A stretch of 64,000 bases of DNA from Verrucomicrobiia bacterium (GCA_030427505.1 JAUICH010000019.1:1-64000), one strand, 5' to 3'. Shown: positions 8,020-18,065, numbered from the stretch's first letter. Made by a program: numbers and translations. Notes: generated from the sequence alone by a model not told the origin.

Positions 8020-8508
8020 TTATTTGGCCGCTTTCCCCGCTTCCTGTAGTTCCTTCTGAATCTGCTGGAAGTCCCCTTCCTCGCAGCAACGCACAAAGCC
8101 CTCAGTGTAGGACTTCAGCTTGTCCCAGGTGCGCCGGATCATCTTGGATTCTTCCGCCGTGATGGTGTTGTCCAGGGCGGCTTGGGAAATGATGGAGAGC
8201 AGAGCGGCAAACTGCTGGACGATCTCATGGGTGGCGGGCACCACTTCGTAGCCTTTTTCGCAACTGCTGTGAGGATTCCTGACAAAATACCCATTGGCCC
8301 GTTCGCACAGCCACTCGATGAGCTTGGCGTCGTCCGTGATTTCCAGGAGCCGCGCCACCCGGTCCAGGGGATTGCGACTACCGGAACCGGTCTCCGTATT
8401 GGGCTGCGCCCACTTGTAAACCAGCGAAAGCGAGATACCCAGTTCGGAGGCTATTTCCTTCGGGCTGGTCTTTTCAAAGGTCTTCTTGATGACCTCGTGC
8501 GAATCCAT
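8020..8508 (-). CDS. Hypothetical protein with predicted helix-turn-helix (possible transcriptional regulator)
   Basis: Segment SPKEIASELGISLSLVYKWAQP looks like an HTH. It lies divergently upstream of the NfeD-flotillin operon. Start at internal ATG (MDSHEV). Confidence 0.3.
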   Translation of the reverse strand: MDSHEVIKKTFEKTSPKEIASELGISLSLVYKWAQPNTETGSGSRNPLDRVARLLEITDDAKLIEWLCERANGYFVRNPHSSCEKGYEVVPATHEIVQQFAALLSIISQAALDNTITAEESKMIRRTWDKLKSYTEGFVRCCEEGDFQQIQKELQEAGKAAK

Positions 8509-8721
8509 GCTTCGGAGTTTCGCTGATGCCGCCCCCCTTGACAAGCGCGCAGGCAGGCAGGTTACAAACCCCTTGCCCCTTTGTAATGGTTCAGTTAGTC
8601 CAATCAGCTATCATCGCCGACAATTAGAGAGCGCAAGGGCTCCGCCCGGCCAGCCAGGCTGGAACAGAAACCTCCCGGCTCTCTCCGCGGCCCCGAACCG
8701 CCTGAAAGGAGAACCACCGCC

Positions 8722-9393
8722 ATGGAATTTTTTGCCGAAGCCTTCAACGCCCTGAACCTCCCCGTCACGATCCTCCTGGGGCTGGTCATGCTCTACTGGG
8801 TGATCTCTCTCCTGGGGGTCATCGACTTTGAGTTCCTGGATGGACTGGCCGATCTGGACCCGGACGTGGAGGTAGACGCGGATACCGAACTGGAGACCGA
8901 TTCCGCCCGGACCTCCGGCGGCGGTATCCTTCACTCGGTGCTGAATTTCCTAAACGCCACGGATGTGCCGCTGCTGTTCGTCATTTCTCTCATCGTGCTG
9001 TGCCTCTGGGTCCTGAACCTGGTGGGCAACCACTACTTGAACCCTGAAAGTGACGCCTTGATTGCCTCCGGCGTCACCGTCGGCTCCCTCATCGGCGCGG
9101 TGTTCCTGACAAAGTTTCTCACCCGCCCGCTAACCCCGCTGATGCGGTCTTTCAAGATCAGCGAGGAACACCAGGAGCCCATCGTCGGCCGGGAAGGCGT
9201 GGTCCGTTCTTCGGAGGTCTCCCAGACCTACGGTCAAGTGGAGGTGGCCTCGAAAGGCGCTCCCCTGCTCCTGCACGCCCGGGTCGGCGAAGGCCGCGCC
9301 CCCATCCCCAAGGGAGAAAAAATCATCGTCATCGCCAAACAGGAAAACGGCGGCGCCTACCTGGTCCGCTCCCTGGAGGAGAAGACATCCTAA
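8722..9393 (+). CDS. yqiJ: NfeD-like / YqiJ-family (DUF1449) membrane protein with C-terminal OB-fold, flotillin partner
   Basis: 223 aa. N-terminal TM helices, acidic loop and a C-terminal beta-rich domain, the same architecture as E. coli YqiJ. AGGAG RBS 8 nt upstream. Immediately followed by a flotillin gene. Confidence 0.6.
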   Translation: MEFFAEAFNALNLPVTILLGLVMLYWVISLLGVIDFEFLDGLADLDPDVEVDADTELETDSARTSGGGILHSVLNFLNATDVPLLFVISLIVLCLWVLNLVGNHYLNPESDALIASGVTVGSLIGAVFLTKFLTRPLTPLMRSFKISEEHQEPIVGREGVVRSSEVSQTYGQVEVASKGAPLLLHARVGEGRAPIPKGEKIIVIAKQENGGAYLVRSLEEKTS

Positions 9394-9417
9394 CCAAACA
9401 ACCCTAGAACAAAAAAT

Positions 9418-11430
9418 ATGGACGCTCCCTTCATCGTCAAAGCCGTCGTAGCCGGCGTCGGCCTGGCGTTTTTCATCCTGGTCACCGTGGTGGTGATCTA
9501 TGCGAAACTCCTTCACAAGGTCAAAAAAGGCACCGCGCTGGTCCGAACCGGACAGGGTGGCACCAAGGTGGCCTTCGACCGCATGATGGTCGTGCCCGTG
9601 GTGCACCGCGTGGAGGCCATTGATATCTCCGTCAAACGGATCGAGATCGACCGCAGCGGAGGCGGCGGCTTGATCTGCAAAGACAATATGCGCGCCGACA
9701 TCCGGGTGACCTTCTTCGTCAGGGTCAACAACGCGGCGGAAGATGTGCTGAAAGTCGCCGAGTCCATCGGCTGCGAACGCGCTTCCAGCGAGCAAGCGAT
9801 TCGCGAACTCTTTGACGCGAAGTTCTCGGAGGCCCTCAAGACCGTCGGCAAACGCTTTGAGTTCATTGAGCTCTATGAAGAGCGGGACACCTTCCGCGAC
9901 GAGATCATGAAGGTCATCGGCACGGACCTGAATGGTTTCGTGCTGGACGACGCAGCCATCGACCACCTGGAGCAAACGCCTATCGAGGCGCTCGATCCGG
10001 ACAACATTCTGGATGCCGAGGGTATCAAGAAGATCACCGAACTGACCGCACGCCAAGCCAAGCTGGCCAACGAAATTCAGCGGGACAAAGAAAAGGTCAT
10101 CAAGCAACAGGACGTGTTGGCCCGCGAGGCCATCCTGGAACTCGAACGCCAGCAGGCCGAGGCGGAAGCCAAGCAGGCCCGCGAAGTTTCCGTCATCCGG
10201 TCCCGCGAAGAAGCGGAAGCCGCCAAGGTACACGAAGAGGAACGCCTGAAATCAGAGCGCGCCCGCATTGCCACGGAGGAAGAAGTGGAAGTCGCCACGC
10301 AGAACAAGGACCGCCAGGTCCTGGTGGCGCAGCGGAACAAGGAACGCACCGACGTGGTGGAACAAGAGCGCGTCCTGCGCGACCAGGAGTTGGAGTCCAT
10401 CGAGCGCGAGCGCGTGACCCAACTCAAGTCCATCGAGAAAGAGAAAGCCGTCGAAGTTGAAAAGAAGAACATCCAGGACGTCATCAAAGAACGCGTCATG
10501 GTGGAAAAGACTGTAGTCGAAGAACAGCAGAAGATCCTCGACACCGAAGCCTACGCGCAGGCCGAGCGGCAGAAGAAAGTGGCCATCACTCTGGCCGAGA
10601 AAGAAGCCCAGGAATCCCTGGTGAAGAAAATCAAGGAAGCGGAAGCCGCCAAGGAAGCCGCCCAACTGGCCGCGGATCAGGCGCTCTACGACCGGGTGCG
10701 CAAGGCGGAAGCCGACAAGCAGGCCGCCGAACTGCACGCGGAAGAAGTCGTCGTGGCCGCGGAGGCGGAGCAGTCCGCCGCCGAGAAGCAGTCCGCCGCG
10801 AAGAAGATGCTGGCCGAAGGAGTGACCGCCGAATCCGCCGCGCCTGGCTTGGGCGAAGCCCAGGTCATCAGCGCCAAAGCGGACGCCGAAGCCACCGGCA
10901 TTACCGCCAAGGCGGAGGCCATGAAGAAGCTGGACGCCGTCGGCCGCGAACACGAAGAGTTCAAACTGGAACTCGAAAAAGAGAAAGCCGTCGAGCTGGC
11001 GCACATCAACGTGCAGGCGGACATCGCGGCGCGTCAGGCGGAAGTCGTCGGCGAAGCCCTCAAGCGCGCCAACATCGACATCGTGGGTGGCGAAACCACC
11101 TTCTTCGACCGCATCACCAACGCCATCACCACCGGCAAGGCCTTCGACCGCGCCGTGGAGAACAGCGCCACGCTGTCGGACATCAAGGAGACCTTCTTCA
11201 ATTCGGATCCGGACTACTTTAAGAGTCAGGTGCAGGCCTGGGTCGACCGCTTCGGCGTCAGTAGCGACGATCTGAAGAACCTCTCCATTGCGGCTTTGTT
11301 AGGCCGCATGGCGAAAGAGGCAAAGGACGACAAGACGCGGGGCGAAATCCGGTCTCTCCTCGGCGCCGCGGAACGTTTCGGGTTCGACGGCAACAACGCG
11401 GGCGATACCATCAAGCGTCTCACGTCTTGA
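9418..11430 (+). CDS. yqiK: Flotillin family SPFH/Band-7 protein (YqiK-like) with long coiled-coil region
   Basis: 670 aa. The N-terminal TM and SPFH domain (VRTGQGGTKVAFDRMMVVPVVHRVE…DAEGIKKITELTARQAKLANEIQRDKE) align well with my recollection of E. coli YqiK. Followed by an E/A/K-rich coiled coil. Confidence 0.85.
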   Translation: MDAPFIVKAVVAGVGLAFFILVTVVVIYAKLLHKVKKGTALVRTGQGGTKVAFDRMMVVPVVHRVEAIDISVKRIEIDRSGGGGLICKDNMRADIRVTFFVRVNNAAEDVLKVAESIGCERASSEQAIRELFDAKFSEALKTVGKRFEFIELYEERDTFRDEIMKVIGTDLNGFVLDDAAIDHLEQTPIEALDPDNILDAEGIKKITELTARQAKLANEIQRDKEKVIKQQDVLAREAILELERQQAEAEAKQAREVSVIRSREEAEAAKVHEEERLKSERARIATEEEVEVATQNKDRQVLVAQRNKERTDVVEQERVLRDQELESIERERVTQLKSIEKEKAVEVEKKNIQDVIKERVMVEKTVVEEQQKILDTEAYAQAERQKKVAITLAEKEAQESLVKKIKEAEAAKEAAQLAADQALYDRVRKAEADKQAAELHAEEVVVAAEAEQSAAEKQSAAKKMLAEGVTAESAAPGLGEAQVISAKADAEATGITAKAEAMKKLDAVGREHEEFKLELEKEKAVELAHINVQADIAARQAEVVGEALKRANIDIVGGETTFFDRITNAITTGKAFDRAVENSATLSDIKETFFNSDPDYFKSQVQAWVDRFGVSSDDLKNLSIAALLGRMAKEAKDDKTRGEIRSLLGAAERFGFDGNNAGDTIKRLTS

Positions 11431-11514
11431 AGGTTCCCCGGCTTCTTCCCCTAACGCCCATGTCCATGAAGAGAGTAAAGGCCAACCCTGGCTCTCTTCC
11501 CTCCGACCAATCCC

Positions 11515-14500
11515 GTGGCTGATAACACGACAGAATCGCCGGCAAAAGCCGGCCCGGAGACTGAAGCCAAGCCAGCCGGCCGGACTCCGTTGGAAGGCGG
11601 CGCTTACGAAATCATCCGCGCCCGCCTGGAAACGCACGGCGCGGACCTGCGCCAGCGGCTGACCGCCCTGAACACGGAGCGCCAGTCGGTCTTTGGCGCG
11701 GTGGAGCCCGCCCTCATCGCCACGGACCGCATCAGCACGCAGAACAGCTGCGTCCCACGGGACATCGTGGCGCTCGGCGGGAACCGTTTTCTTTTCGGCT
11801 ACAACGTCCACATCGGCTTGAAGTCCACCACGGATCTCAAGGACGTGTTCGGTGTCTATGAGTACGACGCTGAGGAGCACGCTTTCCGCGAAACGGATCT
11901 CGGTCTGTTGCGTTCGGGTGATTTCGAAAGCGATTTTGCTTACCTCTACAAGTACTACAAAGAGACCACCTTCGTTAAGTTCATGGTCATCGGACCGCAT
12001 CTCTACATGGCCTTCCGGGTGGGCCGGGCCGTGGAAGATGTGAAGACCTTCAAGTGGCTTCTCGGCGGCGGCGAACCTCAGTACCTTGGCAACCGTTCCG
12101 ATCACGAATACGTCTTTCCCCCGCAGCAGGAATTCGAATGGATACGCGCCCACCGGGGCATGCACCGGGCCGGGGTGCATCCACACGTTTCCATAGAAGA
12201 CCGCCTGTTCGTGGAAACCGTCGGCGGCGACCTGACCATCAAGATTGAGGACAACACCTCCTCCGGCGAAGGCATCTACGCGGAGGCCGTCACCAACAGC
12301 GACCAGACCCTGGATGACGCGGAGATTTTTTACGCCACCGTCGGCAGCCTGATCCTCCTGAAGATTCTTCCCTACCAAGAGAAACACTACCGTTACCTGG
12401 TCTACAACGAAAAGGTTAAGAAGGTCACCCGTATCGACTCCATCGCCACCTCCTGCGTGCTGTTGCCGGACGAACACGGGCTCATTTTTTCGGACGGTTA
12501 CTACCTTCAGACGGGCGAGCTGAAGCGTTTTGAAAGCGGCCTCCGCGACATGCTGTTCGAACGCCGCATCGCCTCCCCCAACGGCGAGGACTACCTCTAC
12601 GCTTTCTACAACCGGCGGGACGGCGTTTACATCCTGATGTCTTATAACGTCATCGACCAATCGGTTGAGACGCCCATCATCTGCAACGGCTACACCACCT
12701 TTCCGGACGGCGAACTGGTTTACTTCAAATCTGAAGATCAGCCGCAGAAACATCACACGCTCCAAGTCTGGCAGACGCCCTACATGCAGGGCGAATTTCG
12801 CGCCAGCGAACAGACGGATTCCTACCTCTACAAGGTGGGAAACCCGGACATCGTCCGCTGCATGGCGGAGTGTCACGAGGTGCTCAACCTCCTGGGCAAG
12901 GAAGATACCTACGCGGATCTCTACGTGGACCTGGCCCGAAAGTCGGGGGACATCGTGGACTCCTATTTCTGGGTCGGCGACGAGCGGGCGGGCAACCTGA
13001 AACCCGCCCTGTTGGAAATCCGTTCCGCCGCTCAGGCCGCCATCGCGGAATTCGACAAAGTGCAACGCCTGCGCCGATCCACGGCGGAGGAAACCACGCG
13101 CACGTCGGACAAAGCCCGGAAGTTGGTCGCCAAAGCCCGCAACACCCGGCCGGACGACATCCTCGGCTTTGTCGACAGCCTGGCTCAACTGCGCACGGTT
13201 CGCGGGGAGGTCATCTCGCTTAAAGACCTCCGCTACGCGGACACGGCGTCGATCGAACAGCTCGAAAAAGAGATCGCCGGCGCCACGGAAACAGTGTCGG
13301 AAAATTGCGTCACCTTCTTGCTCAAACCGGAAGCACTCGATCCCTACCAAAAGAAGGTCGAACAGTTGGGCAGTGAGATCGAACCGCTGGGTAAAGTCGC
13401 CGGCGCGGATGCCTTGGAGGAGCGGGTTGCCAAGGCGGGCAGCGAACTGGAGATGCTCATCGAAATCGTGGGCAACCTGAAGATCGCGGACGCCACTCAA
13501 ACCACTCAGATCATCGACGGCATTTCCGCCATCTACTCCGAGCTGAACAAGGTGCGGGTGGCGCTTAAGAACCGGAAGAAAGACCTCGCCCGCCAGGAAG
13601 GGGCCGCCGAGTTTGGCGCGCAGATGAAGCTCTTGAACCAGGCGGTCGTCAACTACCTGGAAATCTGTGACACGCCGGAGAAGTGCGAAGAATACCTCTC
13701 CAAGCTGATGATCCAGCTCGAAGAGCTGGAAGGCCGCTTCAGCGACTTCGACGAGTACCTGGAGCAAATCTCCGGGAAACGCGACGAACTCTACAACGCG
13801 TTTGAGGCCCGGAAGCTGACTCTCATCGAAGCCCGCGGCCGCCGGGCCACTTCCTTAGTCAAGTCAGGCGAGCGCATCCTGAATACCATTCGCCACCGCC
13901 TCGATGGTTTTGAAACCATTCCCGAGATCAATGGCTACATGGCTGGCGACCTGATGCTGGAGAAGGTCCGTAACCTCATCGGCCAGCTCAAGAACCTGGG
14001 CGACAGCGTCAAGGCGGACGATCTCCAGACGCGGCTCAAGACCATTCACGAAGACTCCGTCCGCCAGTTGAAGGACCGGAAAGAACTCTTCGTCGACGGG
14101 CGGAACGTCATTCAGTTCGGAAAGCACAAGTTCTCGGTTAACCACCAAGAACTTCAGCTTTCCATCGTCCCGCACGATGGCGAAATGTGCTTTCACCTGG
14201 CGGGGACAAACTTTTTCGAAGCGGTCCACGACGAAGCCTTTCTCGCCACCCGCGACGTTTGGGACCAGGAAACCGTTTCCGAAAACAGCGATGTCTATCG
14301 CGGCGAATATCTGGCCTGGCAGATTCTCAAGGAACTCACCACCGGCGCCGGCGGCGAGAACGGATTGGAAGGCGTAACCGCCGCTCAGTGGCTGGAACTG
14401 GCAGAACCGGAGCGGCTCGCACTCGTGCAGCGCTTTATGGCGCCGCGCTACCAGGAAGGCTACACCAAGGGTGTCCACGGTCACGACGCCACCCGGCTGC

Positions 14501-16761
14501 TCGACCGGCTGGTTTCGGTTCACCAGGCCGTGGGTCTGCTTCGCTTTGCTCCAGCGGACCGGGCGCTGGCCCTGCTCTTCTGGGCCCACTGGCCTGAGCA
14601 GGATGAGGAAAAGGGGCGCTTCGACCAAAAAGTTAAAGCCTATGGGCTGATGAGCGAAGCCTTCGGGCCCGGCGGCCACCAGGATACTTATGTTGAGTTT
14701 CTTCGCGACCGGCTGAGCACCTTTCACCGGGCCCATGGGGAAGTCTGCGCTCACCTCTCCGGGAGCGATCCCGGCGAAGCGGCTGAGTATCTTTTCCTTG
14801 AACTCCAGGACCACTCCCCGTTCGCGGTCTCTCCCGAGGCGTCCGCGCTCGTCGCACACCTTCGCCATGTCCTGACCTCCAAGCGCTTGGAGAAGCAATT
14901 CGCCGAAGCCCAGAGCGGTCTGGAGGGGCACCCGGTATCCGCCTACGAAATCGCCCGTGACTGGCTCAGCGGAGTTCTGTGCGAGCCGTTCTCCGGTCAG
15001 GAAAACGCCTCGGCCTCCGGCACCGCGCGGCAGTACCGCCGCTACATCGTGGAAGCCGCCGCGCACCTGGCCAAGGGAGGCTTCGAGCTGCTGGACGTCC
15101 GCCACGTGGAAACCACCGCGACCCTGGAAGGGCTGCTGGGCAGCCACGCCCGGATCGATAAAGAGGCTTACCAATTTGATTACCTGGATTTCACCCAGCG
15201 CCTCCGGCGTTTCGAACGCGACGTGGTCCCTCGCTTCCGTACCTGTCACGAACGGAAGACCCGGTTGGTCAGCGATCAGCGGAATTCGCTTCGCCTGGAT
15301 GAATTCAAGCCGCGGGTGATGAGTTCCTTTGTCCGCAACCGCTTGCTGGACCGCGTTTATCTGCCCCTGATTGGAGACAACCTCGCAAAACAGATGGGTA
15401 CTGCCGGAGACGACACCCGGACGGACCGCATGGGCCTGCTCCTGCTCATTTCCCCGCCCGGCTACGGCAAAACCACGCTCATGGAATACGTGGCGAACCG
15501 CCTGGGCGTGACCTTCATGAAGATCAACGGCCCCGCCATCGGTCACGACGTGAAGTCGCTCGATCCCGAGGACGCGCCGAACGCCAGCGCCCGCGAGGAA
15601 ATTCACAAGCTGAACCTGGCCCTCGAAATGGGGGACAACGTGATGATCTACCTGGATGACATCCAGCACTGTCATCCTGAGTTCCTTCAGAAATTCATTT
15701 CTCTTTGCGACGCACAGCGGAAGATCGAGGGCGTCTTTCGGGGCCGCCCGCGCACCTATGATCTGCGCGGAAAGAAGGTCTGCGTGGTCATGGCGGGAAA
15801 TCCCTATACCGAAAGCGGCGGTAAGTTCCAGATACCCGACATGCTCGCCAACCGGGCGGATACTTACAACCTGGGCGACATCCTCGGCGGCCACCAGGCG
15901 GACTTCGAAGCCAGCTACCTGGAAAACTGCCTGACCTCCAGCCCGGCGCTGAGCCGCCTGGCCAGCCGGAGCCAGGCGGATGTGTATGCCATCATGAAGA
16001 TCGCCGCGGGAAGTTCTCAGGAGGGTATCGACTTCGAAGGGAACTATTCCGTGGAGGAGATCGAGGAGATGACCGCCGTCATGAAGAAACTCATGCGCGT
16101 GCGCGATACCATCCTTCGCGTGAACTTGGAATACATCCGCTCCGCCGCCATGGAGGACGCCTACCGCACCGAGCCGCCTTTCAAGCTCCAGGGCTCCTAT
16201 CGGAACATGAACCGCATCGCCGAAAAGATCCTGCCCATCATGACGGACCAGGAAGTCGAGGCCGTGATTCTCGATCACTACGAAAACGAAGCCCAGACCC
16301 TCACCACCGGCGCGGAGGCGAATCTGCTCAAGTTCCGCGAACTGGAAAACCTGCTCACCGAAGAAGAAACCGCCCGCTGGGAGGAGATCCGGCGCCGCTT
16401 CGGCCGCAACCTGCTGATGGGCAGCGGCGGAAAGGACAACGATCCCGTCTCCCGCGTGGTCGGCACACTCGCCACCTTTGCCGATGGGCTCAGCCGCATC
16501 GAAGGCGTCATGAGCCGCGCCGTCGAACACCAGACTCAACCCGCCACCCTGGCGGACGTGACGGTGGAAAGATTGGAACAACTCATCGCCGGCCTGCGCG
16601 CCGTTCCGGTGGAAGTGGAGATCAAAGTTGTGCCCGTCCAGGAAGCACCTGACAGCGACCAGAAGTCAACATCCGCGAAAAAGAAAGCCTCAACGAAAAA
16701 AGCCTCTTCTTCCCCCGAACTTCCGGTGGACATCCAGTCCCGGACCGAGCAAAAGGAGTAG
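11515..16761 (+). CDS. Giant (1748 aa) uncharacterised protein: N-terminal globular region, extensive coiled coils, AAA+ ATPase domain near C-terminus, Lys-rich tail
   Basis: GTG start 85 nt after flotillin on the same strand. Walker A LLLISPPGYGKTTL at nt 15460-15477, Walker B VMIYLDDIQH around nt 15644-15670, downstream VCVVMAGNP…ANRADTY typical of MoxR/AAA_5-like cores. C-terminal KSTSAKKKASTKKASS tail. Confidence 0.8.
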   Translation: MADNTTESPAKAGPETEAKPAGRTPLEGGAYEIIRARLETHGADLRQRLTALNTERQSVFGAVEPALIATDRISTQNSCVPRDIVALGGNRFLFGYNVHIGLKSTTDLKDVFGVYEYDAEEHAFRETDLGLLRSGDFESDFAYLYKYYKETTFVKFMVIGPHLYMAFRVGRAVEDVKTFKWLLGGGEPQYLGNRSDHEYVFPPQQEFEWIRAHRGMHRAGVHPHVSIEDRLFVETVGGDLTIKIEDNTSSGEGIYAEAVTNSDQTLDDAEIFYATVGSLILLKILPYQEKHYRYLVYNEKVKKVTRIDSIATSCVLLPDEHGLIFSDGYYLQTGELKRFESGLRDMLFERRIASPNGEDYLYAFYNRRDGVYILMSYNVIDQSVETPIICNGYTTFPDGELVYFKSEDQPQKHHTLQVWQTPYMQGEFRASEQTDSYLYKVGNPDIVRCMAECHEVLNLLGKEDTYADLYVDLARKSGDIVDSYFWVGDERAGNLKPALLEIRSAAQAAIAEFDKVQRLRRSTAEETTRTSDKARKLVAKARNTRPDDILGFVDSLAQLRTVRGEVISLKDLRYADTASIEQLEKEIAGATETVSENCVTFLLKPEALDPYQKKVEQLGSEIEPLGKVAGADALEERVAKAGSELEMLIEIVGNLKIADATQTTQIIDGISAIYSELNKVRVALKNRKKDLARQEGAAEFGAQMKLLNQAVVNYLEICDTPEKCEEYLSKLMIQLEELEGRFSDFDEYLEQISGKRDELYNAFEARKLTLIEARGRRATSLVKSGERILNTIRHRLDGFETIPEINGYMAGDLMLEKVRNLIGQLKNLGDSVKADDLQTRLKTIHEDSVRQLKDRKELFVDGRNVIQFGKHKFSVNHQELQLSIVPHDGEMCFHLAGTNFFEAVHDEAFLATRDVWDQETVSENSDVYRGEYLAWQILKELTTGAGGENGLEGVTAAQWLELAEPERLALVQRFMAPRYQEGYTKGVHGHDATRLLDRLVSVHQAVGLLRFAPADRALALLFWAHWPEQDEEKGRFDQKVKAYGLMSEAFGPGGHQDTYVEFLRDRLSTFHRAHGEVCAHLSGSDPGEAAEYLFLELQDHSPFAVSPEASALVAHLRHVLTSKRLEKQFAEAQSGLEGHPVSAYEIARDWLSGVLCEPFSGQENASASGTARQYRRYIVEAAAHLAKGGFELLDVRHVETTATLEGLLGSHARIDKEAYQFDYLDFTQRLRRFERDVVPRFRTCHERKTRLVSDQRNSLRLDEFKPRVMSSFVRNRLLDRVYLPLIGDNLAKQMGTAGDDTRTDRMGLLLLISPPGYGKTTLMEYVANRLGVTFMKINGPAIGHDVKSLDPEDAPNASAREEIHKLNLALEMGDNVMIYLDDIQHCHPEFLQKFISLCDAQRKIEGVFRGRPRTYDLRGKKVCVVMAGNPYTESGGKFQIPDMLANRADTYNLGDILGGHQADFEASYLENCLTSSPALSRLASRSQADVYAIMKIAAGSSQEGIDFEGNYSVEEIEEMTAVMKKLMRVRDTILRVNLEYIRSAAMEDAYRTEPPFKLQGSYRNMNRIAEKILPIMTDQEVEAVILDHYENEAQTLTTGAEANLLKFRELENLLTEEETARWEEIRRRFGRNLLMGSGGKDNDPVSRVVGTLATFADGLSRIEGVMSRAVEHQTQPATLADVTVERLEQLIAGLRAVPVEVEIKVVPVQEAPDSDQKSTSAKKKASTKKASSSPELPVDIQSRTEQKE

Positions 16762-16805
16762 GCGGCGCCGCCAATGGCACACCGTCGCCTCTCGACTCGA
16801 CCGGC

Positions 16806-17987
16806 TCAGGATTCCGCGTTCACGGTCTCGATCCCACCGCAATCTTCGCAAACCGTAGCGGCGGCTTTCGTCCCATACACGGTCAGACACCGGGGACAAT
16901 AATGGGGGATCGCTCCTTCGGCGAAGTCATCTTTCTCGATAGACGGTGTCTTAACGATATCCCAATCCGATCGCCCGAGGAAAGCTTCCAAAGATGGCTT
17001 CACATATACAGTGTGAAAGAGGCTGGCGTTCTCCAGAGCTTTCCGGGCAGTTTCGCTCTGGCTGGGATCGAGAAGGAAGGGCACCGGATATTCCGCGTCC
17101 CTCCAGACGCTCGAGACGATCTCCCGCGCCTCTTCTTTCCGGCACAGCACCTTCGCCACGGCGGCGGGATGAGCGCTTCGCAGGAGGTCTCGCGACAGGG
17201 CATCCATGGAGCGGATGGCATGCTGTGGCAACGTGAGTGAAAGGAACGCATACTGCCAGCGTTCGCCTTTCAGGCCGGGGAAAAGACGCCGGTGCAAGAA
17301 GAAATACTCCAGGGTCACCTGCCACATCAGGGCCCAAGACACCACCAAAGCGTAAAAGAATGGCAGGCTGGCCCCGAAACGCCAATAGGCAAACGGCACG
17401 AACAGGAAGGTCGCTACGAATAGCAGACTATCGACGTAGCGCGGCCAGCGGGTGGCCCTCAATAACAGGGACATCCGGCGGCGCACTCTCGACGGATTCA
17501 GCGACCGCGCCACCAGCTTCTGGATGGCGTCGTGACGATCTGAAGCAGGTAAATCAACCAGCGTTCCCACGGTCTCTGCCGTCCAATGCGCCAAAAAGGG
17601 GTCCGGCATCTTCAGGACACGCTTCCGGTTAATCTCCAGCCAACGGCGGTCCGTGGTCACCGATTCTATCTCCTCCCAGGCGGCGAAAAACGCCGTCTGA
17701 TGAGGCCGCGGTCCCGGGTTGGAGCACGCCACGGTCAGAGTTCCCACTCCTTTTTCTGTCAACGAAACCGGAAACGGCTCGGCCACGAAGATCGAGCCCA
17801 GCGGCGGCAGCGGCATCGCCACGACCAGTCCGCCTTTTGCGGTTCCCGCCACGGGTATGGGCCGTTTGCGCGTCCAGTTCCGGTTGAATACGGAGAGGAA
17901 AGCCACGCCATGAGGCCCCAACCAGACCAAGCAATCGCTGACGTAGATCAGGATGAAAATGAACAGAAAAAGTTGCCCGTCAGACAT
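16806..17987 (-). CDS. Hypothetical multi-pass membrane protein with C-terminal zinc-ribbon-like CPRC…CEDC motif
   Basis: About 394 aa from internal ATG (MSDGQLFLFIF). Several hydrophobic helices. C-terminus HYCPRCLTVYGTKAAATVCEDCGG. Convergent with the giant ATPase gene. Confidence 0.4.
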   Translation of the reverse strand: MSDGQLFLFIFILIYVSDCLVWLGPHGVAFLSVFNRNWTRKRPIPVAGTAKGGLVVAMPLPPLGSIFVAEPFPVSLTEKGVGTLTVACSNPGPRPHQTAFFAAWEEIESVTTDRRWLEINRKRVLKMPDPFLAHWTAETVGTLVDLPASDRHDAIQKLVARSLNPSRVRRRMSLLLRATRWPRYVDSLLFVATFLFVPFAYWRFGASLPFFYALVVSWALMWQVTLEYFFLHRRLFPGLKGERWQYAFLSLTLPQHAIRSMDALSRDLLRSAHPAAVAKVLCRKEEAREIVSSVWRDAEYPVPFLLDPSQSETARKALENASLFHTVYVKPSLEAFLGRSDWDIVKTPSIEKDDFAEGAIPHYCPRCLTVYGTKAAATVCEDCGGIETVNAES

Positions 17988-18065
17988 GAAGTTAAGGGCT
18001 CGTTGACCAGAGGTGTCGTGGGTTGGCGAATCGGAATATGTCCCGCTACCAGCTTCATGCAAAAC

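Follow-up and report, generated by a model that had tools for sequence, protein, structure and literature searches.

The two-gene units yqiJK of Escherichia coli and yuaF-floT of Bacillus subtilis encode an NfeD-like membrane protein and a flotillin, but no ATPase. A longer arrangement has been described in silico as a PspA-associated operon that encodes a CesT/Tir protein, a YqiJ/YuaF protein, a band-7/flotillin protein, and a protein combining a beta-propeller, a coiled coil and an AAA+ region (PMC11237479, mSystems 2024, section 19 and Table S3; bioRxiv 2020.09.24.301986). The same paper reports a PLD hydrolase in the operons of some Proteobacteria, mentions “abbreviated operons” that consist of the flotillin, YqiJ/YuaF and sometimes the ATPase, and proposes a chaperone-like role in membrane dynamics, all in one paragraph and without a census. 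Here, we analyse a 64,000-nucleotide stretch of DNA from a Verrucomicrobiia bacterium (GCA_030427505.1, JAUICH010000019.1:1-64000), called the window below, in which a yqiJ-like gene, a gene for a YqiK-type flotillin and a gene for a 1748-residue AAA+ ATPase follow each other. It is almost certain that these three genes constitute a single conserved unit and that it belongs to the type known from that in silico description.

The yqiJ-like gene (8722-9393, plus strand, 223 amino acids, ATG start) is separated by 24 nt from the flotillin gene (9418-11430, plus strand, 670 amino acids, ATG start), which in turn is separated by 84 nt from the ATPase gene (11515-16761, plus strand, 1748 amino acids, GTG start). 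An earlier note on the window had given the same positions and strand for these open reading frames (ORFs), with gaps that were one nucleotide too long (25 and 85 nt). The order of the genes, yqiJ followed by the flotillin and the ATPase gene, is shared with the operon in PMC11237479 (Table S3, row ANH61663.1), as is the layout of the ATPase, with a propeller, a coiled-coil or helical region and a C-terminal AAA+ module. Homologs of the window ATPase are located in such operons in Bacteroidota and on the plasmid pQBR103, while Dokdonia, the example given in the paper, falls outside the sampled loci. The full form of the operon has an adjacent CesT/Tir-PspA pair, whereas none is present in the 64 kb of the window, which corresponds to the abbreviated form, and the window has a divergent CII-like regulator instead of a helix-turn-helix (HTH) gene of the XRE type with a weak S24-like match. 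Since the sampled loci reproduce the features reported in PMC11237479 around homologs of the window ATPase, the window contains the short form of that system. The gene order and the ATPase architecture are thus not new, contrary to the earlier note, which considered the system undescribed; it was right to the extent that a literature search identified no experimental work on the unit or any of its members. Papers on SO1377 in Shewanella and on SPFH proteins in Pseudomonas aeruginosa treat flotillins and other SPFH proteins and do not mention such an ATPase. The units in E. coli and B. subtilis encode homologous proteins in the same order and with the same short gap. However, yqiK in E. coli is followed by the sibD/ibsD small-RNA/toxin loci and hldE, and most flotillins of the window family, which form a divergent branch, go undetected by the Pfam Band_7 model.

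The conservation of the unit was assessed in two samples. The genome sample, with one genome per species, was collected by a pattern scan derived from A2, an alignment of 38 ATPase sequences spanning 30-53% identity, which matched at least 579 loci; 80 of these were kept, their ORFs were searched with profiles built from the window proteins, and 73 were informative in having at least 700 bp of upstream sequence. The metagenome sample started from the subfamily farthest from the window ATPase, at approximately 30% identity, and comprised 80 loci, of which 77 were informative. A total of 165 loci were sampled. A flotillin-like ORF is located directly upstream of the ATPase gene and on the same strand in 67 of the 73 genome loci and in 74 of the 77 divergent metagenome loci (141 of 150 together, 94%). 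The complete triad is also present in all five annotated replicons, which represent pQBR103 of Pseudomonas fluorescens SBW25, Proteus mirabilis, Vibrio campbellii, Streptomyces and Deinococcus. A YqiJ-like ORF precedes the flotillin gene in 53 genome loci and 54 metagenome loci, with a median gap of 18 nt in the 53 genome loci that contain both. The loci cover at least nine phyla: Verrucomicrobiota, Planctomycetota, Kiritimatiellota, Bacteroidota, Desulfobacterota, Bacillota, Pseudomonadota, Actinomycetota and Deinococcota. The pairwise distances of the ATPases and the flotillins are correlated across 101 loci (r = 0.85, Mantel p = 0.001), to which a shared species history contributes. Joint inheritance of the three genes across phyla is well supported, and the synteny in 141 of 150 loci means that the three-gene unit is real.

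The ATPase family has more than 4280 homologs, which form 764 clusters at 50% identity, and the full-length members are approximately 1600-1900 amino acids long with a conserved architecture. The closest homologs are found in Verrucomicrobiales at 56-69% identity, with Akkermansiaceae, Rubritalea and Roseibacillus among the names. The 120 best matches are 56-100% identical to the window protein, and all that carry a taxon name are verrucomicrobial, except for one entry named “soil metagenome”. No relatives were identified in 2.9 million viral contigs. Inheritance of the ATPase looks mostly vertical, and the family is present in a minority of genomes and also occurs on megaplasmids. In five loci of the Limisphaerales/Pedosphaera-like type (L044, L048, L049, L051 and L053), the flotillin and the ATPase genes are present but no YqiJ-like gene was detected; these loci have in common an unannotated Pro/Ala-rich ORF of about 290 amino acids downstream of the ATPase gene, with no match in Pfam. 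A seeming fusion of the flotillin and the ATPase in L106 was rejected, as it looks like a read-through of a GC-rich spacer.

When searched alone, the 670-residue protein matches nothing in Pfam, NCBIfam or the sequences of the Protein Data Bank (PDB), and the Pfam models Band_7 and Flot give no match even at E <= 10; the gene call on the source contig assigns no Pfam family to the gene. The Band_7 model is reached by only two of 30 members of the flotillin family, while the other 28 have no match to it. The family profile (A3) aligns with E. coli YqiK over 397 columns at 30% identity (hhalign probability 100, E = 1.2e-42), and a flotillin profile gives a weak match to the SPFH protein QmcA (8Z5G, E = 6e-4). 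The match to YqiK shows that the flotillin assignment is right and that the protein belongs to a divergent branch of the YqiK family, and we read the miss by Band_7 and Flot as a sensitivity gap of these models, not as evidence against homology. An annotation based on Pfam domains would thereby leave this branch unflagged as SPFH proteins. The protein has an N-terminal membrane segment (one hydrophobic segment, residues 1-36), an SPFH domain, a long helical region rich in Glu, Ala and Lys, and a conserved C-terminal domain.

The 223-residue protein scores just above the cut-off for Pfam YqiJ_N (24.5 bits, cut-off 23), can be aligned end to end with E. coli YqiJ by BLASTP (E = 3e-4), and reaches only E = 0.36 with the Pfam NfeD model. 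A profile of 22 family members (A7) matches E. coli YqiJ at columns 15-211 (hhalign probability 97.3, E = 2e-11) and the NfeD-like domain of B. subtilis YuaF in PDB (2K14, E = 0.0076). With three predicted transmembrane segments (residues 9-39, 73-106 and 111-131) and a predicted C-terminal beta domain, its assignment as an NfeD-like membrane protein of the YqiJ/YuaF type is well supported. The family profiles against E. coli YqiK and YqiJ thus bear out the flotillin-NfeD pair recognised in the earlier note.

The 1748-residue ATPase contains the Pfam domains DUF3686 (residues 44-485, E = 1.9e-185), DUF7902 (606-689) and AAA (1309-1432), and has no predicted transmembrane segment, while both of its partner proteins are of the membrane type. 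Structures were predicted with AlphaFold2 for residues 1-1150 (predicted local distance difference test, pLDDT, 72) and residues 851-1748 (pLDDT 75, predicted template modelling score 0.61). The DUF3686 domain (11644-12969, plus strand), which the earlier note had considered an unrecognisable region, is modelled as a helix at residues 31-60 followed by approximately 26 strands in residues 66-420, with pLDDT mostly 50-85. Foldseek searches against PDB give weak matches of this beta domain to the beta-propellers of CyRPA, GH43, prolyl oligopeptidase and Ycf48 (E = 1e-3 to 1e-2, template modelling (TM) score about 0.33). In the model, the N-terminal domain is thus beta-rich and, going by these weak matches, propeller-like. 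The helical region that follows, including DUF7902 (residues 437-857; 12823-14085, plus strand), contains twelve helices in the model, arranged as consecutive bundles rather than as the single coiled coil of about 350 amino acids suggested previously. It is followed by a small beta domain (residues 865-903) and an all-helical domain (residues ~930-1260; both in 14107-15294, plus strand). The latter is predicted with confidence (pLDDT ~85-93), and no relative of it was found among the top 50 PDB matches listed by Foldseek, all of which are AAA+ ATPases.

The AAA+ module (residues ~1300-1500; 15412-16014, plus strand) is supported by the A2 alignment, Pfam and the topology of the AlphaFold2 model. 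Invariant in A2 are the Walker A motif SPPGYGKT with K1319, the Walker B motif DDIQH with D1381 and D1382, the sensor-1 residue N1429, and R1447. The best-scoring Pfam model for this core is AAA (PF00004, 31.9 bits), ahead of AAA_5 (27.5 bits, cut-off 22), while RuvB_N remains under its cut-off. The best match in Foldseek is RuvB (E = 3.6e-5, TM score 0.36), followed by Skd3/ClpB, MCM, NorQ, FtsH and p97, all of them weak, and the NorQ/CbbQ proteins are found at ranks 22-50. In the model, a beta-hairpin (residues 1403-1416) separates helix alpha3 from strand beta4 ahead of sensor 1, and helix alpha2 carries no insert. The MoxR/AAA_5-like label previously given to the core is not specifically supported, because RuvB matches best in structure, ahead of NorQ/CbbQ, PF00004 is ahead of AAA_5, the hairpin is present, and the helix alpha2 insert is missing. 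The C-terminal part (16051-16761, plus strand) is predicted to contain helices at residues 1513-1694 and a low-complexity tail rich in Lys and Ser. The Lys-rich tail reported previously does exist, with eight lysines in the last 58 residues, but it is poorly conserved in A2 and of low confidence in the model (pLDDT < 50).

For the ATPase gene, no start is possible ahead of the GTG at 11515, and the sole alternative is a TTG at codon 26, which directly precedes the conserved “LEGGAY”. An obvious Shine-Dalgarno site is missing from both candidates, in agreement with the earlier note, while such a site is present ahead of the yqiJ-like gene (GAAAGGAG). A scan for promoters and terminators gave a result no better than for shuffled sequence and is therefore uninformative on transcript structure. 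Of the single operon proposed earlier, the tight co-directional arrangement of the genes holds, but a single transcript is not established, with spacer insertions in about half of the homologous loci.

When the ORFs surrounding the ATPase genes were clustered, the ATPase, the flotillin and YqiJ were the only families present across most of the sample. Genes for PspA-like proteins occur in 16 of the 80 genome loci and 13 of the 80 metagenome loci, so that from the viewpoint of the ATPase the link to the flotillin is nearly obligatory (94%) but the link to PspA a minority feature (~18% of the sampled loci). In this sizeable minority, the three genes and the CesT/Tir-PspA pair make up one co-directional cluster, an arrangement that is well supported. 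In 14-16 Bacteroidota loci, a divergent XRE-HTH gene, with a weak match to S24 peptidases that falls below the cut-off, is followed by genes for CesT_Tir_1, PspA_IM30, YqiJ and the flotillin, in this order; the two families just upstream of yqiJ are identified with E = 1.4e-52 (CesT_Tir_1) and E = 6.5e-35 (PspA_IM30). On pQBR103 (L163, 84.4-97.6 kb), genes for YjfI, PspA, a rhomboid protein, DUF2491, DUF350, DUF1190, a glutathionylspermidine-synthase-like protein, a YqiJ-like protein, an SPFH protein and the ATPase all have the same direction. This megaplasmid carries the longest version of the cluster seen, which combines CesT/PspA, polyamine-type genes and a rhomboid gene, and its host is genetically tractable. 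In Vibrio campbellii (L164, 12834-14612), a gene for a PLDc_2 protein with a single HKD motif starts immediately after the stop codon of the ATPase gene and is followed by TelA; the PLDc_2 protein may either act on lipids or be a nuclease, a distinction that matters for whether the unit works at the membrane or in defence. Other neighbors related to stress or the membrane are LemA in Proteus and TerD in Streptomyces. Two Proteus mirabilis records in PLSDB (NZ_OL790811.1 and NZ_OL790812.1), filed there as plasmids, are chromosome-sized at 4.08 Mb and almost unannotated.

Upstream of the unit in the window, the minus strand contains the HTH gene that the earlier note had described as divergent (8020-8508, 162 amino acids by the gene call on the source contig; longest ORF 8020-8544, 174 amino acids). 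Its product is CII-like, with a match to Pfam Phage_CP76 (E = 2.9e-8, 34.1 bits, cut-off 26) and a weak match to NCBIfam YmfL under the cut-off of that model. Homologs (E = 1e-71 to 1e-85) adjoin the yqiJ-like gene in five loci from Verrucomicrobiota and Kiritimatiellota, divergently in L002, L003, L007 and L013 and in the same direction in L024, while the homolog in L014 is 5.6 kb away. The gene is missing from the remaining loci and is therefore lineage-specific. Between the CII-like gene and yqiJ there is a perfect inverted repeat, TTACAAA-N11-TTTGTAA (8562-8586), which is the only occurrence in the window at up to two mismatches, with 0.06 expected by chance. The palindrome is also present in the matching intergenic regions of the related Verrucomicrobiales loci L002, L003 and L007 (alignment A5), where the TTACAAA arm does not vary at all and the second arm hardly does. 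It is likely to be an operator, to which the CII-like protein may bind, and the expression of the operon in this lineage is probably controlled by this regulator through the palindrome.

On the other side of the unit, a convergent gene on the minus strand (16806-17987, 393 amino acids by the gene call; longest ORF 16806-18062, 418 amino acids) encodes a protein without a Pfam family, with an N-terminal hydrophobic segment, further hydrophobic stretches seen by eye, and a C-terminal zinc-ribbon-like motif, CPRC...CEDC. The convergent zinc-ribbon neighbor reported in the earlier note thus exists, but a search of the 80 genome loci returned no homolog, and it was rejected as a component and is an orphan unrelated to the operon. 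A DUF2167 gene in the window was rejected for the same reason (0 of 80 loci). Within the window, the unit is otherwise flanked by housekeeping genes, namely those for a symporter, a sulfatase and NIPSNAP.

In our reading, the locus is most likely the short form, without PspA, of a conserved envelope-stress module in which the ATPase would remodel assemblies of the flotillin or of PspA. If it behaves like the SPFH assemblies of known structure, the flotillin would form a large ring or cage, a dome, that sits on the cytoplasmic side of the inner membrane and binds the NfeD-like protein. The ATPase would form a ring as well, as is usual for AAA+ proteins. Its N-terminal half, with the propeller-like domain and the helical bundles, would make contact with the flotillin cage or with PspA polymers that have been recruited to it. 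In response to membrane damage under envelope stress, the ATPase would spend ATP on opening, disassembling or reshaping the assembly, or on pulling out a client. We give this mechanism as a whole about an even chance of being correct. The role in membrane remodelling or repair, one of those suggested in the earlier note, is in our judgement the best-supported one, whereas abortive-infection defence, suggested alongside it, is ranked here as a rival.

The best mechanistic precedent for pairing an SPFH scaffold with an AAA+ ATPase is HflK/HflC-FtsH, in which the HflK/C cages enclose the AAA+ protease FtsH. FtsH is anchored in the membrane and has a protease domain, and the cage faces the periplasm, whereas the window ATPase is soluble, lacks a protease domain, is approximately 2.7 times longer and has a flotillin of the YqiK type as its partner. 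Another likeness is with ESCRT-III and Vps4, and with PspA, which is a relative of ESCRT-III and is genetically linked to AAA+ ATPases (PMC11237479, section 18). In these systems, a membrane-remodelling polymer has a genetic link to an AAA+ ATPase with a potential role in its recycling. However, no MIT domain was identified in the window ATPase with Pfam or NCBIfam, its core is most similar to RuvB rather than to Vps4, and the invariant partner of its family is the flotillin rather than PspA. A third likeness is with the pspA-ydjGHI (samGHI) cluster of B. subtilis, in which an SPFH protein is grouped with PspA and small membrane partners; the SPFH protein YdjI recruits PspA to the membrane and is required for its localisation there (PMC8581546, restated in PMC10936438). 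That cluster lacks a gene for a giant ATPase, its YdjI is short and cytosolic, and nothing conserved in the loci studied here corresponds to its zinc-ribbon protein YdjG.

Several observations weigh against an energy-driven remodelling module. The Walker B motif is Asp-Asp instead of Asp-Glu, as in slow, switch-like AAA+ proteins such as DnaA, and the loop after strand beta2 contains no aromatic residue of the kind found in AAA+ motors that thread proteins; a motor function is therefore uncertain, and a slow switch is possible. The nearest AAA+ structures to the core are those of RuvB, which is a DNA motor. No homolog of PspA or CesT was identified within the window, for PspA even at E <= 1. 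Nine of the 150 ATPase genes have no adjacent flotillin gene, and in about half of the homologous loci unrelated small genes are located between the flotillin and the ATPase genes, which means that strict co-transcription is not obligatory. Such insertions were noted in L004, L006, L012, L023, L027, L032, L035, L037, L058, L066 and L080 and include GxxExxY-like genes, DUF559-like endonucleases, IS200-like transposases, PIN and RelE-like genes and lipoproteins, with names read from the sequence and cluster membership computed. As candidates for a fourth component, they were rejected as heterogeneous.

Among the rival explanations, client extraction is a variant of the remodelling mechanism. The flotillin cage would provide a platform, much like HflK/C in the case of FtsH, where an ATPase that is not itself a protease pulls damaged or mislocalised proteins out of the membrane or unfolds them. 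The analogy with HflK/C-FtsH, also drawn in a passage of PMC13220708, is in its favor, together with the rhomboid protease gene in the pQBR103 cluster, the beta-hairpin before sensor 1, which is as in proteins of the Clp, Lon and RuvB type, and the presence of ClpB, Skd3 and ClpA among the Foldseek matches. However, the ATPase has no protease domain, no protease gene is adjacent to it in most loci, and the aromatic pore loop is absent, and we regard this variant as unlikely, if still the likeliest of the rivals.

An anti-phage or abortive-infection system would work differently, in that the flotillin and the NfeD-like protein sense a perturbation of the membrane during infection and the ATPase, in some lineages with a nuclease or lipase of the PLD family, triggers growth arrest or destroys phage material. 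This would fit with the adjacent regulators of phage-type families, which are CII/CP76-like here and XRE-HTH with a sub-cut-off S24 match in Bacteroidota, and with the PLDc_2 gene directly after the ATPase gene in Vibrio, since the PLDc_2 family includes nucleases. Small toxin or selfish genes (PIN, RelE-like, endonuclease-like and IS200-like) are inserted in the locus of several genomes, the ATPase family occurs in a minority of genomes and on megaplasmids, and defence systems often include giant ATPases that have helical arms. In contrast, no match to the defence models in PADLOC-DB v2 (library dated 2023) was obtained for the flotillin, the YqiJ-like, the CII-like or the zinc-ribbon protein, and the ATPase matches only in a 29-residue P-loop segment (IetA, E = 9e-4) and, marginally, in a coiled coil (JetC, E = 0.0023). 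Furthermore, the viral contigs contain no relatives, sequence similarity broadly tracks taxonomy, unlike for typical defence genes, the genes flanking the unit in the window are of the housekeeping type, and the recurrent partners are stress genes, namely PspA/CesT, polyamine, TelA and TerD genes. A literature search for flotillins in combination with anti-phage defence identified no relevant paper. We consider a role in defence improbable.

Finally, the protein could be a true ATPase for DNA repair or chromosome handling, anchored at the membrane by the flotillin; equipped with long helical arms, it would translocate DNA in the manner of RuvB. The family is named “DNA repair ATPase” by NCBI and described as “ATPase involved in DNA repair” in Pfam, RuvB is the best, albeit weak, match of the AAA+ core in both sequence and structure, the pore region lacks the aromatic loop, the C-terminal tail is basic, and the XRE-HTH gene with a weak match to S24 (LexA/CI-like) proteins in Bacteroidota could mean SOS control. 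The earlier note had named membership in a well-characterised family, such as a DNA-repair ATPase, as a finding that would speak against a new system; in a formal sense such a name exists, but nothing was found that supports it, and literature searches for DUF3686 or PF12458, or for “DNA repair ATPase” together with flotillin, identified no paper. The SMC, Rad50 and RecN proteins have an ABC head split by a long antiparallel coiled coil with a hinge or hook, whereas the window ATPase has a single C-terminal AAA+ module and helical bundles, and its marginal coiled-coil match to JetC is the sole signal of an SMC-like kind. Moreover, no DNA-binding domain was detected with Pfam or NCBIfam, the conserved neighbors are membrane proteins with no repair genes among the clusters found in at least five loci, and the basic tail is not conserved in A2. 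The label was most likely inherited from an automated coiled-coil similarity to COGs of the SbcC/RecN type, and a function in DNA repair appears highly improbable. A coincidental adjacency of three genes without a shared function, which could be argued from the unrelated genes in the spacer and the nine ATPase genes without an adjacent flotillin, and which the earlier note had expected if homologs lacked synteny with flotillin and NfeD genes, is effectively refuted by the same-strand adjacency in 94% of the loci, across at least nine phyla, down to approximately 30% identity and in all five replicons, and by the correlated divergence of the two proteins, and has next to no probability left.

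The census makes a one-paragraph remark, based on in silico data, a quantified and testable association. New here are the ATPase-centred census, the domain map, the reassessment of the MoxR assignment, the doubt on the “DNA repair” label, and the lineage-specific regulator with its candidate operator. The name “DNA repair ATPase” is also a problem of annotation, as it has spread to many homologs without any support that we could find. Tractable hosts that carry the unit are P. fluorescens SBW25 with pQBR103, Proteus mirabilis and Vibrio campbellii.

Cryo-electron microscopy has revealed that SPFH proteins, including HflK/C, QmcA, flotillin-1/2, prohibitins and erlins, form closed domes on membranes. 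How such domes are assembled and disassembled, and how clients enter and exit, is to our knowledge not a settled question. The ATPase is encoded nearly always right after the flotillin gene, and in a sizeable minority of loci in one cluster with the membrane-repair protein PspA, and is therefore an obvious candidate for the missing active component. A more speculative idea is that it acts as a coat-like factor that shapes membranes, as its modelled layout of a propeller and helical repeats gives faint matches, at the level of architecture, to the IFT-A and nucleoporin coat proteins (Foldseek E ~1e-4, TM score < 0.12). By analogy with Vps4 and ESCRT-III, the DUF3686 ATPase may be a dedicated, energy-driven opener or recycler of bacterial flotillin cages, a possibility that we find on balance doubtful. 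If true, such a cage-opening ATPase would be the first known active regulator of the dynamics of SPFH microdomains, and it would be present in at least nine bacterial phyla.

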